A DNA stretch of 64,000 bases, from contig CBFIGX010000005.1 in NCBI GenBank assembly GCA_965662265.1, forward strand, positions 7,494 to 71,493. Direction: 5' to 3'. The notes below the pieces were generated by a model. That model was not told the DNA's origin. It searched no databases and saw only the letters and a list, made by a program, of their open reading frames with translations. This DNA is from Flavobacteriales bacterium. Lineage in GTDB: Bacteria > Bacteroidota > Bacteroidia > Flavobacteriales > UBA7430. Both the position numbers and the translations under genes were made by a program. Each line of letters opens with the position of its first letter. Positions within the stretch are counted from its first letter, which is position 1. Of the stretch, positions 20,205 through 24,482 are shown in pieces.

Positions 20205-22502
20205 TTAGAATTTGAAATTTAATCCTAAACTTGGCATAATAGGAAGTTGATCTACGCGCTGGTCTGTTAGTTGATCATAATAGAAAATATTTGCTCTATC
20301 ATATAAATTACTAATGCTTAATGACGCTTCTAAGATATTTGTTTTTGTAAATTCAATTTTCTTTGTTATAGAAACGTCTAACCTATGATAATTTGGCATC
20401 CTACCTTCATTATAGTCACTATATAAAATAGCAACATCATCATTTACATTGGTAATATCTGTATTAATTCCATCTGTAAAAACAATTTTCTCGTAGTAAG
20501 CTTGAGTTTTTGTAAAAGGGAATCCTGAACCAAAATTCCATCTCATATCAAGCGTCCAAGATTTATCCTCTCCAAAAATATGCGATGCTACAAAATTAAC
20601 ATTGTGTCGTCGATCATATAAAGGAGCATACTCTCCCAAAGCGTCTGTTCTACTTACTTTTCCCAAGGAATACACTAGCCAAAGACTGGTTTGGATATTG
20701 TTATACTTTAATAAAAAATCAACCCCTTTTGCTAAACCTGTTTCTACAACAAAATCTTTTTTCTCTTCGTCTGAGACTTGATTATTATATGAGTTGTCTT
20801 CGTAAATCTTATTTCTATTTAAATTAATCAATTGATTAAAATCTTTAAGGTATCCTTCAACATTTAAGGTCCACTTGTCATTTAAATCATACTCTAAACC
20901 AACAATAAGGTGTTTTGCTGTTTGGAGATATGTATCACGTTCTTCATCACCAAGATATTTTGGTAGATTTGTTGTACTTGAGATATAACCTTGAAATAAA
21001 TTCACAACCTCTCGTCCTGTAGATACTGCTATCAAGTTTTGAGAAAACAAACCTGCAGAGGACTTTATTCTAAAGTCTTCAGTAAGATTATATTTAAGAC
21101 CCATCCTTGGTTCTAATACAGACTCACCTAAGGATGTATAGGAATGAAAACGAAGACTTGGTTGTAATAGCAATCGTGTTCCTACGTGTTTATAGTCTAC
21201 AAAACCTGCAAACTCTGTGGTATTGTCATTATGAGATATTTTGACATTAGAGCTCGTATAAAAATCAAGGGTATTTCCAAATCCTAGTACTTCCACACCG
21301 TACTTAACCTCAGACTCACCTTCAAGGAAATATGTAAAATCAATTCCAGTATTAAAGCCTCCAATAGAGCTGTTTTTTGGTTTCTCATTGGCACTTATTT
21401 GCTCAGTATTATAATTAGAGTAAGCAAAATTTCCTTCTATCAAAACTCCAGAACCAGCAGGTAATAATATAAAACTAGAGCCAAAACCATAAGAATTCCA
21501 GTTAAAGTTTGTGATGGAAGAATAATCTACTTGATCAGAAAAATTAAAACCAAACAGGCTAAACTTACTTCCACTTTTTCCCATAAAAGATGCTTTACCA
21601 TAAACATCTAAAAAGCTGTAGGGCAAACCTTGATCTCCAGTATATTCGTAAATATTCGTAGATGTATAATCTATGTATGAGTTTTTTGCTGAAATAATAA
21701 ATGAAGAACTAGCCCCTTTTTCGTTTGGTTTTGAAAGAGGCCCTTCAAGCAAAATTTTAGATCCAAACGTATTGGCAGATACTTTCCCGGATAATCGTTT
21801 TCTATTTCCATCTCTTGTTTTAACATCTACAATTGATGAAATACGACCACCGTATTCTGCTCCAAAACCACCGGTATAAACATCAGCAGTTTTTATTACA
21901 TCTGTATCAAAGACAGAAAATAAACCTATTGAGTGAAATGCATTATACAATATCATACCGTCAAGTAATACAGCATTGTGAATAGGTGCACCACCTCTTA
22001 TATATAATTGACCTCCTTGATCTCCAGTAAACACAACACCAGGTAAAACTTGTAAATACTGAGCTAAATCTGGCTCCCCCCCAATTGAAGGAAGCTTTTT
22101 TAAAGATTTAGCAGTTAGTTTAACAACAGACGTATTTACACTAGTCTTTGCCTCTTGACGTTCAGCAGATAATTGAATCGTATTTAGTTCAATGCTAGAT
22201 TCGTTTAGGTAAAATGTTTTGTTCTGTATTTTGTTAGATTCAATTGTAACCGATATGGATTGTTGATCGTAACCAATATAACTAACAGTAACTGTATAAG
22301 TGCCTACTGGAACTTTTGATAGGTTATAAAATCCATTCGCATCAGTTACACCTCCTATGTTAGTACCTTCTAATAATATATTTGAAAACATTGCAGGTTC
22401 CCCCGAACTCGCTTCATACACAAAACCTCTAAGAGTACCAGTCTGTGCAAATAACTGGATAGTAACAAATAATGAAATGAAAATTAATTGAACTTTATTC
22501 AT
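20205..22502 (-). CDS. TonB-dependent receptor
   Basis: Likely start 22502 (MNKVQL); GEPDLAQYLQVLPGV, QLYIRGG, YHRLDV, C-terminal LNFKF. Confidence 0.9.
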   Translation of the reverse strand: MNKVQLIFISLFVTIQLFAQTGTLRGFVYEASSGEPAMFSNILLEGTNIGGVTDANGFYNLSKVPVGTYTVTVSYIGYDQQSISVTIESNKIQNKTFYLNESSIELNTIQLSAERQEAKTSVNTSVVKLTAKSLKKLPSIGGEPDLAQYLQVLPGVVFTGDQGGQLYIRGGAPIHNAVLLDGMILYNAFHSIGLFSVFDTDVIKTADVYTGGFGAEYGGRISSIVDVKTRDGNRKRLSGKVSANTFGSKILLEGPLSKPNEKGASSSFIISAKNSYIDYTSTNIYEYTGDQGLPYSFLDVYGKASFMGKSGSKFSLFGFNFSDQVDYSSITNFNWNSYGFGSSFILLPAGSGVLIEGNFAYSNYNTEQISANEKPKNSSIGGFNTGIDFTYFLEGESEVKYGVEVLGFGNTLDFYTSSNVKISHNDNTTEFAGFVDYKHVGTRLLLQPSLRFHSYTSLGESVLEPRMGLKYNLTEDFRIKSSAGLFSQNLIAVSTGREVVNLFQGYISSTTNLPKYLGDEERDTYLQTAKHLIVGLEYDLNDKWTLNVEGYLKDFNQLINLNRNKIYEDNSYNNQVSDEEKKDFVVETGLAKGVDFLLKYNNIQTSLWLVYSLGKVSRTDALGEYAPLYDRRHNVNFVASHIFGEDKSWTLDMRWNFGSGFPFTKTQAYYEKIVFTDGINTDITNVNDDVAILYSDYNEGRMPNYHRLDVSITKKIEFTKTNILEASLSISNLYDRANIFYYDQLTDQRVDQLPIMPSLGLNFKF

Positions 22503-22589
22503 AGTATGTTTTTTTGCTGTGCGAAGATAATTATTCCACTTAATAATAGTAGAATTTGTAAGCAAGTATTATTCCATATAAAATTTGAT

Positions 22590-22615
22590 AAAAAAAAAGA
22601 GCTCTATTGAGCTCC
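22590..22615 (-). terminator. Intrinsic terminator of the 50-aa gene
   Basis: Minus strand reads GGAGCTC-AATA-GAGCTCT followed by a run of T, about 20 nt after the TGA at 22636. Confidence 0.8.
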
Positions 22616-22635
22616 TTATAACCTATTTAGTTTTT

Positions 22636-22788
22636 TCAACTTCCACATGCTTCACATTCTGGATCATCAATAGAACATGCCTCTGGTTGATCCTTTTCTT
22701 CTAAATCTGTTAGCCAAGAAGAAAATGAATCTTCTTGTGTATTTTGCATTTCTTTTCTCACCTCTTCATGGTCTTTGTTGTCAATCAT
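22636..22788 (-). CDS. Unannotated 50-aa acidic small protein ending in an RNR-alpha-like CX6CX2CGS tail
   Basis: Hand translation: MIDNKDHEEVRKEMQNTQEDSFSSWLTDLEEKDQPEACSIDDPECEACGS*. It has an A-rich leader with A at -3, TAATTTAG upstream (22822-22829) and a terminator downstream. Confidence 0.88.
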   Translation of the reverse strand: MIDNKDHEEVRKEMQNTQEDSFSSWLTDLEEKDQPEACSIDDPECEACGS

Positions 22789-23001
22789 AATATTTTGTAT
22801 TGTAGGTTAATTTGATAATCACTAAATTATTCATTTATTTATTTAAAAATAAACACACAGCGTATTATTATCAACAGAAGGATCTTTAATATATTAAAGA
22901 GGTTAAGCTAGTTATTAACGATATAGTAATTTAAATAAGTAAAGGTGAAAAGTCAATTAAGCATAAAAATAAATTAAAGGAGATTTAAGCTGGTTTAATT
23001 T

Positions 23002-23009
23002 TATATTTG
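23002..23009 (+). promoter_or_regulatory. TAnnTTTG -7 element for the holA operon
   Basis: TATATTTG 17 bp before the ATG at 23027. Confidence 0.7.
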
Positions 23010-23026
23010 TCTAAGGGTATGATATT

Positions 23027-24025
23027 ATGACACACAACCAAATTCTTTTTGATTTAGAAGCTAAAAGGTATGCTTCAACCTACTTTTTAGCAGGAGAAGA
23101 AACTTATTATATTGATTTGATAAGTGATTACATAGAGAGTAATGTCTTAAAAGAAGAAGAGAAAGGGTTTAACCAATCTGTTTATTATGGTCGAGATATT
23201 GATGTATCTGATGTTATAGCGTCTGCAAAGCAATATCCAATGATGGCTGAACATACAGTTATTATTATTAAAGAAGCGCAAGACCTGAAAAAAATTGAGG
23301 AACTAAATAGTTATATCCAAAAACCACTAGAAAGTACGGTTTTAGTAGTGTGCTATAGAGGAAAGCGGTTAGACAAACGAAAAGCTCTTTATAAAAACAT
23401 TAACAAACATGGTTTATACTTTGAAAGTAATAAACTTTACGATAACAAAATCCCTAACTGGATAAGTGAATATTTAATAACAAAACATCGGTCTATAAAC
23501 TCTAAATCTGCAATACTTTTAGGAGAATTTATTGGAAATGATTTATCCAAAATTTCTGGTGAATTAAATAAGCTTTGTCTTTTAACTCAAAAGGGTTCTG
23601 AAATTACCGAGCAACTTATTGAAGACAACATAGGAATTAGTAAAGATTATAATAATTTTGAGCTACAACATGCTATAATTCATAAAAATGTGCTTAAAGC
23701 GAACCGAATTATTAAGTATTTTGAAGCGAATTCAAAAAAAAATCCTATTGTAGTAACTTTAACTGTTTTGTACAATTGTTTTAGTAAAATTCTAATTTAT
23801 CATAGCTTAAAAGACAAAAACCCTCAAGTTGTAGCCAGAAATTTAGGCATTAACCCATATTTTGTCAAAGATTATCAACAAGGAGCTGCAAACTATAGTC
23901 TTAAAAAATCTGTATATGCTTTAGATCTTCTCAGATCAACAGATGTTAAAGCAAAAGGATATAACAATCCTTCCACGTCGCACTCTGACTTATTAAAGGA
24001 ACTCATATACAATCTGATTCATTAG
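23027..24025 (+). CDS. holA: DNA polymerase III delta subunit
   Basis: YFLAGEETYYID, AKQYPMMAE, IIKEAQ, IGISKDYNNFELQ (Bacteroidota HolA). Confidence 0.92.
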   Translation: MTHNQILFDLEAKRYASTYFLAGEETYYIDLISDYIESNVLKEEEKGFNQSVYYGRDIDVSDVIASAKQYPMMAEHTVIIIKEAQDLKKIEELNSYIQKPLESTVLVVCYRGKRLDKRKALYKNINKHGLYFESNKLYDNKIPNWISEYLITKHRSINSKSAILLGEFIGNDLSKISGELNKLCLLTQKGSEITEQLIEDNIGISKDYNNFELQHAIIHKNVLKANRIIKYFEANSKKNPIVVTLTVLYNCFSKILIYHSLKDKNPQVVARNLGINPYFVKDYQQGAANYSLKKSVYALDLLRSTDVKAKGYNNPSTSHSDLLKELIYNLIH

Positions 24026-24035
24026 ATATTTAGAG

Positions 24036-24482
24036 ATGATTAGGCTAAACCTACCCACGTATGTATTTAAGTACAAAAAAGAGAATTCGAAAACATATAT
24101 TTTTGACACTATTAGAAAAAAATACATCATTTTAACTCCTGAAGAATGGGTGCGTCAAAACATAGTCAGATTTCTTACAAAAGACAGAAATTATCCTGCT
24201 TCGCTATTTGCTATAGAAATGGGTATTGATGTGTTGCAAACAAAAAAAAGATGCGATGTTATAGTTTATGACAATAAAGGTTTACCCCAACTAGTTGTTG
24301 AATGTAAATCGCCGAAAATTAAAATAAATCAAGCCGCTTTTGACCAAATTGCGAGGTATAACATGACGTTAAAAACAAAGCTGTTAATTGTAACAAATGG
24401 TCTTGAACACTATACCTGTACAATGGATCATGATAATAAGCGCTATAAATTTTTAAAAGACATTCCTTTTTACAGTCAATAA
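24036..24482 (+). CDS. Stand-alone HsdR N-terminal-like (PD-(D/E)xK) domain protein
   Basis: IFDTIRKKYIILTPEEWVRQ, RCDVIV, VECKSP, FDQIARYN, TNGLEH. Confidence 0.85.
   Translation: MIRLNLPTYVFKYKKENSKTYIFDTIRKKYIILTPEEWVRQNIVRFLTKDRNYPASLFAIEMGIDVLQTKKRCDVIVYDNKGLPQLVVECKSPKIKINQAAFDQIARYNMTLKTKLLIVTNGLEHYTCTMDHDNKRYKFLKDIPFYSQ

Follow-up and report, generated by a model that had tools for sequence, protein, structure and literature searches.

Why should the C-terminal redox tail of an enzyme be encoded as a protein of its own, apart from the enzyme that carries it? The question is raised by a 50-codon open reading frame (ORF; minus strand, 22636-22788) in a 64,000-nucleotide stretch of a Flavobacteriales contig, which was analysed as a whole and is called the window below. 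We refer to the encoded protein as the mini-protein and to its gene as the mini-gene. An earlier note, made from the letters alone, had read it as a free-standing imitation of the tail of the alpha subunit of ribonucleotide reductase (RNR), NrdA. We find that the mini-gene is a real and conserved gene, with strong purifying selection on codons 19-50. Judged by sequence comparison, its last ~18 residues are a genuine copy of the redox tail with which class Ia RNR alpha ends. The family is found mostly in phages, and these carriers lack an RNR of their own, a point absent from the earlier note that alters the likely purpose of the mini-protein. We tentatively read it as a helper that would act in trans on the NrdA of the host.

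The ORF and its translation were identical to those first described, and a recount on the translation gave the same acidity (16 Asp or Glu among 50 residues) and the same cysteines at positions 38, 45 and 48. When the 16 other genomes of the family were searched in six frames, 9 proved to have a full-length copy. With a profile search, the mini-gene was present in 10 of 17 family genomes, the window's own included, and in 6 of the 7 high-quality ones; every copy had 50 codons. Pooled across the 45 pairs of ten orthologs, the ratio of nonsynonymous to synonymous differences per site (pN/pS) was 0.25 for the whole ORF, being higher (0.49) in codons 1-18 and lower (0.11) in codons 19-50, at a pS of 0.68, which is near saturation. 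Residues 1 to ~18 varied among the family orthologs, and the protein was nearly fixed from residue 19 onward. Invariant positions in the 16-sequence alignment were W25, D28, L29, E30, K32, Q34, P35, C38, C45, E46, A47, C48, G49 and S50. Conservation of W25 and of the cysteine-bearing end had been proposed as a check on stand-alone homologs, and both W25 and the three cysteines were retained without exception in the family alignment. Across 91 diverse small proteins, C38, C45, C48 and G49 remained invariant, and L29 and S50 were at least 90% conserved.

The mini-gene also has signals of its own, as had been claimed. The sequence TAATTTAG at 22829-22822 has a single mismatch to TAnnTTTG, which we take to be the Bacteroidota -7 consensus, and 8 of 10 orthologs have a TAnnTT[TA]G box 28-38 nt 5' of the ATG. 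A hairpin followed by a T-run is found 3' of the stop codon in all 10 orthologs, with stem sequences that vary by genome, and a scan around the mini-gene gave two terminator-like sites in 900 nt, compared with 0.3 expected from shuffles. The description as a monocistronic, stand-alone gene is likewise borne out by the recurrence of the ORF as a conserved stand-alone frame in the 10 family genomes. No Rfam family was detected in 22000-23500 at E-values up to 1. In one metatranscriptome run, two 151-nt contigs at depth 2 covered 22655-22805, nearly the whole ORF, and 22408-22557. The contig over the ORF gives a weak hint of transcription, with carry-over of DNA into the library being possible.

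The evidence for the identity of the tail comes in the first place from the same genome. Its sole RNR alpha gene, the only gene with a PF02867 domain, adjoins nrdB on a contig (C1) other than that of the mini-gene. The NrdA encoded there ends in ...EQLACSIDDPDDCIACGS and the mini-protein in ...DQPEACSIDDPECEACGS, with the common pattern ACSIDDP...C.ACGS, which occurred in these two proteins only among the 24,222 open frames of at least 30 amino acids in the genome. The NCBIfam model NF005544 (RNR alpha) matched residues 18-48 of the mini-protein at profile positions 934-964 of 965 (E-value 0.0043), a score far below the cut-off for whole proteins, as expected for a 31-residue match. The sole meaningful match in the PDB was to residues 948-962 of the RNR alpha chain 5im3_A (E-value 0.0088), with equal Cx6CxxC spacing. 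In some orthologs the last 14 residues were the same as the NrdA ends of two Cytophagales metagenome-assembled genomes, including the positions that are not cysteines. The lead-in [DE]QPxAC is common to many gammaproteobacterial NrdA proteins, and the Cx6CxxC spacing likewise occurs in NrdA tails of both Bacteroidota and Gammaproteobacteria. The mini-protein therefore has what marks an RNR alpha tail, namely a C-terminal CxxC preceded by a conserved cysteine and S-I-D-[DN]-P, and the resemblance on which the earlier note was built holds. What it does not have is the catalytic barrel (PF02867); no Pfam family was found in the ORF.

In 35 flavobacterial NrdA sequences, C783, C791, C794, S784, P788, G795 and S796 were invariant. 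The presence of invariant cysteines in both NrdA and the mini-proteins fits a shared chemistry. The gap between the first and second cysteine differs, being 6 residues in the mini-proteins of the family and 7 in the NrdA proteins of the same genomes. At the nucleotide level, the ACSIDDP stretches of the mini-gene and nrdA agreed in 4 of 7 codons and differed in the other 3 at the third base only (18 of 21 bases identical), and the last six codons agreed at 10 of 18 bases. The shared residues are mostly written in different synonymous codons. We therefore rejected a recent duplication of, or gene conversion from, nrdA, and the likeness of the tails is kept up by selection at the protein level.

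Whether the enzyme still carries its own tail had been named as a further check, and it does: NrdA retains its tail in all 12 family genomes with this type of NrdA (the window's genome and 11 relatives). The absence of an nrdA remnant from the surroundings, which had also been claimed, was upheld by a tblastn search of NrdA against the full 64 kb, in which only residues 782-796 aligned, and these to the mini-ORF; no decayed nrdA was seen. Two genera of the family, g5 (locus L040 in genome G004) and g6 (L041 in G009; these and similar labels are our own handles), encode a distant RNR alpha with 34-36% identity to the C-terminal part of the window genome's NrdA. In these genera RNR alpha has another tail ending, and the mini-protein was not found. 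Separately, one relative (L042, G001:C2:1-2732) contained a second NrdA-like gene, with 76% identity over 176 residues and a different tail, which is either an extra copy or contamination of the genome bin.

In an AlphaFold2 model based on a 91-sequence alignment (mean predicted local distance difference test score, pLDDT, 80.9), the mini-protein is predicted to have two parts: one long, acidic, amphipathic helix (residues 4-31) and an extended tail corresponding to that of NrdA (residues 33-50), with the three cysteines and the CxxCGS end. The helix is modelled most confidently at residues 21-30 (mean pLDDT 92). This conserved amphipathic helix was not found in NrdA.

The family is wider than the genomes around the window. 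A profile search of 1.84 billion representative proteins at E-values up to 1e-3 returned 96 matches, 92 of which were small proteins of 29-103 amino acids. Most of the small members follow the pattern [FW]xx[WF][LIV]x[DE]LE...[ED]QP..C(6-7 residues)CxxCGS to the C-terminus; a few end otherwise or add a short extension. The four long matches (825-2286 amino acids) were multi-stretch and stopped short of the profile end, and we took them as matches to acidic low-complexity sequence and not as fused forms. All source names for the members were "hypothetical" or "uncharacterised", the ESM Atlas offering hypothetical protein clusters only; Pfam and PHROGs gave no family for the mini-protein, and NCBIfam gave the RNR alpha tail match only. 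One 40-residue cluster occurs on hundreds of contigs of up to 2.17 Mb that are labelled Schleiferiaceae or Cryomorphaceae. As a side observation, some members (P0033, P0056, P0057, P0082, and also P0017, P0050, P0051 and P0090) have an N-terminal Cys-rich extension, often of the form CxxC-x4-CxxC. Together with the tail it recalls the zinc-finger-plus-tail layout of class II RNR C-termini, as far as the accessible part of the published description goes.

In a sample of 401 genomes of the order, stand-alone copies were confined to the window's family (10 genomes) and genus g88 of another family (4 genomes), and the remaining matches were NrdA tails. Each of the 14 carriers encodes, in addition, an NrdA with this type of tail. 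In a further sample of 400 Bacteroidota genomes from across the phylum, the mini-gene was not found at E-values up to 1e-5. A scan of genome contigs with a generic pattern retained 80 loci, most of them gammaproteobacterial NrdA tails; among 15 of these that were checked, 2 were stand-alone (L043, L044) and 13 were NrdA. The cellular carriers are marine Flavobacteriales with small genomes, and their copies sit in housekeeping gene contexts. In genus g88 (L268, G326:C6:162000-181000), nrdAB shares a contig with the mini-gene at a distance of 9 kb, with ahcY, a GNAT/ACPS protein, dnaG, an MscS channel, a polyprenyl synthase and a TerB-DnaJ protein encoded in between, and a TonB-dependent receptor gene lies 1.5 kb from the mini-gene on the side away from nrdAB.

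Relatives of the mini-protein were encoded on 409 IMG/VR contigs. In all 80 viral loci examined among these, the match was a stand-alone ORF of 45-68 amino acids. A large terminase gene (phrog_6681) lay ~0.8 kb downstream on the same strand in 40 of the 80 loci, a portal gene was present in 19, and PhoH followed the mini-gene directly in 21. Other recurrent neighbours encoded an exonuclease, GroES-like and holin-like proteins, an M15 peptidase and a DnaB-like helicase, in at least 8 distinct gene orders. Relatives of the terminase and portal proteins came only from phages of Flavobacterium, Cellulophaga, Tenacibaculum and Maribacter and from one uncultured record (87 records in all). Copies thus occur both in cell chromosomes and beside phage terminase and portal genes, as in a gene shared by phages and hosts. 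In a tree of the last 34 residues, from which identical viral sequences had been dropped to leave 52 viral rows from the 80 loci, the g88 cell clade adjoined three viral sequences (support 99/94), and the window's family formed a short-branched grade beside other viral clades, the columns being too few to give a direction of transfer. From this placement of cell and viral copies it follows that the gene has been exchanged between cells and phages.

No phage isolate with the mini-gene was found: tblastn with two family members as queries matched none of 50,697 phage records, under a low-complexity filter that may mask acidic queries, and a profile search detected no relative in MW202828.1, Maribacter phage Panino or Flavobacterium phage elemoA_7-9A. 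RNR alpha was found in none of 30 viral records that carry the mini-gene, 7 of which were estimated to be at least 97% complete. Among five carrier phage records, four had a PF00085 match and none a glutaredoxin. At four loci (L263-L266, in G769-G771 and G773), the protein has a thioredoxin fold and a signal-peptide-like N-terminus, without CxxC at the active-site position. A link between the mini-protein and a phage thioredoxin was rejected on these grounds, the PF00085 proteins being without the active-site CxxC and looking secreted. With no RNR alpha, no glutaredoxin and no redox-active thioredoxin in the carrier phages, the mini-protein would have to act on parts of the host.

Among the roles that such a protein could have, the one we favour, with less than even confidence, is that of an in-trans helper of host NrdA that would raise or protect the output of deoxynucleoside triphosphates (dNTPs). 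The active-site disulfide of class I RNR is reduced by a pair of cysteines at the C-terminus, to which thioredoxin or glutaredoxin in turn passes electrons, according to the accessible part of PMC4078304. The helix of the mini-protein would serve as a non-covalent tether to NrdA, and its tail would join the thiol-disulfide relay of the enzyme, electrons passing from thioredoxin to the tail cysteines and on to the active-site disulfide. Host NrdA would in this way gain an extra, or differently fed, reductive arm. In phages without an RNR, the mini-gene would then be a 150-nt auxiliary metabolic gene that raises or protects the dNTP output of the host enzyme, and the cellular copies may serve the cell in the same way. 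Retention by both cells and phages would be the usual pattern of an auxiliary gene that supports metabolism. We infer the binding to NrdA, the redox exchange and the direction of the effect from the tail copy, the predicted helix and the nature of the carriers.

Several observations weigh against such a helper. NrdA keeps its own tail in every genome examined with this type of NrdA, and why the enzyme should need a second arm is not evident. The mini-gene is not linked to nrdAB, being on another contig here and 9 kb away in g88 with unrelated housekeeping genes in between. Genus g4 has the same type of NrdA, yet no copy of the mini-gene was found in it, and the co-occurrence of carriers with the matching NrdA tail comes from two lineages only. 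A strongly conserved tether helix would suit a tight-binding regulator as well as a shuttle. Finally, the precedents of trans-acting, tail-related proteins are harmful or inhibitory in those parts of the published accounts that are accessible: the detached C-terminal domain of Neurospora UN-24 formed a non-reducible complex with Rnr1p and gave an incompatibility-like phenotype at low-level expression, and a class II Cys-rich C-terminal domain that was expressed separately did not restore the activity of the truncated enzyme.

These two precedents speak for the strongest competitor, in which the mini-protein would be an inhibitor in the manner of Sml1 or of the UN-24 domain; we regard it as unlikely, though well worth weighing. 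Its helix would dock on NrdA and its tail would occupy the entrance of the active site or lock it by a disulfide, in competition with the tail of NrdA itself, and dNTP synthesis would fall. In cells such a protein could be a regulator linked to redox state or growth; in phages it could halt host replication while host nucleotides are reused. The conserved helix, which has the highest confidence in the model, would fit tight binding, and the exonuclease encoded by the carrier phages could let them draw on the DNA of the host. On the other hand, phages that lack an RNR, as all 30 records do, need dNTP synthesis by the host. An inhibitor on the chromosome, under purifying selection in two cell lineages, would also need tight control, of which no sign was seen, and plain competitive binding calls for no invariant redox cysteines. 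We lean slightly towards the in-trans helper over the inhibitor.

Both of these possibilities place the mini-protein on RNR. It is improbable, in our judgement, that the target is instead thioredoxin or another redoxin that reduces the tail, with the mini-protein as decoy, sink or adaptor, diverting or recruiting the host redoxin, for example to a phage process, or reporting the redox state. The tail of NrdA is the substrate of the redoxin, as stated in the accessible part of PMC4078304, and the carrier phages are without a redox-active thioredoxin or glutaredoxin, so any redoxin involved would be that of the host. Beyond the CxxC, the conserved parts of the tail are the first cysteine and the SIDNP stretch, and NrdA conserves both as well, a pattern that recognition by a redoxin and recognition by the active site would produce alike. 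No redoxin gene was linked to the mini-gene in the cell or phage loci examined.

Quite improbable is a role unrelated to RNR in which the tail has been reused, as a peptide that binds zinc or iron or as an acidic helix that imitates nucleic acid or inhibits a defence protein of the host. Mimicry is common among small, very acidic proteins of phages. A metal could be bound by the three invariant cysteines and the many carboxylates, some members have an N-terminal CxxC-x4-CxxC knuckle, and a TonB-dependent receptor gene lies downstream of the mini-gene both in the window and in genus g7. The linkage to the receptor is not conserved, however, this gene having been lost or truncated in genera g2 and g3, and the 14-residue identity to real NrdA tails extends to non-cysteine positions that a generic metal site does not need. 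Nor was a recurrent maturase or transporter found beside the mini-gene, in the cell loci or among the 25 commonest viral neighbour clusters (19 representatives annotated), as would mark a ribosomally synthesized and post-translationally modified peptide or a metallophore. The last alternative, that the ORF arose by chance or is a functionless relic of the 3' end of an nrdA gene, is suggested by the very short length and by a resemblance to a known protein that is confined to the tail, and it has a negligible probability and is excluded as far as sequence evidence reaches, by the pN/pS of 0.11 with saturated synonymous sites, the conserved start, box and terminator, the ~92 small-protein clusters and 409 viral contigs, and the absence from the window of nrdA-derived flanks, relaxed constraint and any other NrdA-like stretch.

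The neighbours of the mini-gene in the window (Table 1) are ordinary chromosomal genes. In genera g2 and g3, holA is kept beside the mini-gene; in g7, where the receptor gene is kept, holA is not. Because the synteny with both genes breaks between genera, the mini-gene stands on its own, and a functional link to the TonB-dependent receptor or to holA was rejected, each neighbour being retained only in part of the family. In one locus (L004, G002:C96), a decayed receptor gene follows the mini-gene, with only its last ~160 residues left in two frames. A TTTGGAATGAAACTTG-like stretch at ~22555-22580 (minus strand), between the terminator of the mini-gene and the start of the receptor gene, is common to the window and genus g7 (orthologous spacers L003 and L008-L011) and could have a promoter or regulatory role for the receptor gene. 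After holA, at 24036-24482 on the plus strand, a 148-residue ORF encodes the N-terminal domain of a type I restriction R subunit alone (HSDR_N_2, E-value 1.2e-39); it adjoins holA in genus g2 too.

Table 1 Features of the mini-gene and its surroundings in the window.
Feature	Position	Strand	Basis or remark
Coding sequence of the mini-protein, 50 codons and stop	22636..22788	-	Stop 22636-22638; ORF and translation
Predicted acidic amphipathic helix, codons 4-31, core F22..W25 L26..D28 L29 E30	22696..22779	-	AlphaFold2 model, alignments
NrdA-tail module DQPEACSIDDPECEACGS, codons 33-50, Cys 38/45/48, running to the C-terminus	22639..22692	-	Matches to NrdA, 5im3_A and NF005544
Promoter-like box TAATTTAG	22822..22829	-	33 nt 5' of the ATG; box recurs in orthologs
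Intrinsic-terminator-like hairpin (22617-22596) and T-run	22587..22617	-	9 pairs; terminator scan
TonB-dependent receptor gene, downstream of the mini-gene	20205-22565	-	
holA, divergent, upstream of the mini-gene	23027-24025	+	pyrG and yidC beyond

In the openly accessible literature, with subscription journals and supplements outside the search, no free-standing class I RNR tail protein and no phage mimic of an RNR tail was found described. We rate the mini-protein as an RNR reductive module encoded apart from its enzyme, and as unusual in three respects: a tail is still present on the enzyme, the mini-gene is not linked to nrdAB, and most carriers are phages that have no RNR. In its broadest form, the proposal is that marine flavobacterial phages lacking RNR use a 45-68 residue, helix-tethered copy of the tail to control the regeneration of host class Ia RNR, and that this device was exchanged with, and fixed in, streamlined hosts; we see the chances that it is right and that it is wrong as balanced. 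If it is right, no earlier case would be known of a class I RNR tail that acts naturally in trans, or of a viral factor that works on RNR by mimicry of its tail. The occurrence of the mini-gene in some marine flavobacteria and on hundreds of phage contigs points to a so far undescribed means by which the supply of DNA precursors is adjusted. RNR sets that supply, and regeneration through the C-terminal tail is among its less understood steps. A detached tail with a docking helix would offer a handle on how the tail reaches both the active site and the redoxin. The proposal would also add a class of phage-host interaction at the level of nucleotide metabolism, in which phages without an RNR tune the enzyme of the host, and it would allow a family to be named whose members, on hundreds of marine contigs, have so far been listed solely as "hypothetical protein".

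Among known systems, the closest in sequence is the class Ia NrdA tail itself, in its Bacteroidota, eukaryote-like and gammaproteobacterial forms, which has the same module, [DE]QPxAC-S-I-D-[DN]-P-...-C-x-x-C, with three cysteines at the C-terminus. Unlike that tail, the mini-protein has only 50 residues, is detached from the barrel and has a conserved amphipathic helix in front of the module. Sml1-type regulators of yeast are small proteins that have been proposed to act at the regeneration step of the large-subunit C-terminus; a 2007 study by Zhang and colleagues reportedly, by its title, places inhibition by Sml1 at the C-terminus. Sml1 itself is not known to carry an RNR tail. No sequence relation of the mini-protein to Sml1 or Spd1 was detected, and it falls in no described inhibitor family, but an inhibitory effect, if it has one, would extend the Sml1 logic of yeast to bacteria and viruses.

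Two further systems share the separation of the tail from the enzyme, each as described in the accessible part of its source. In split class II RNRs (NrdJa and NrdJb), the reductive C-terminal module is, as here, a separate gene. NrdJb is a Cys-rich domain of the 150-220 residue type that elsewhere forms part of NrdJ, and where it is split off, the catalytic chain lacks it. In contrast, the mini-protein belongs to class I, has 50 residues and three cysteines and not a zinc-finger domain of 150-220 residues, is unlinked to nrdAB and borne by phages, and its catalytic subunit keeps a module of its own. The PA incompatibility domain of Neurospora UN-24 is a free C-terminus of the RNR large subunit that acts in trans on another large subunit. 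That domain is a harmful 135-residue experimental construct derived from a fungal allele, whereas the mini-protein, known from its sequence, is a natural stand-alone gene product.

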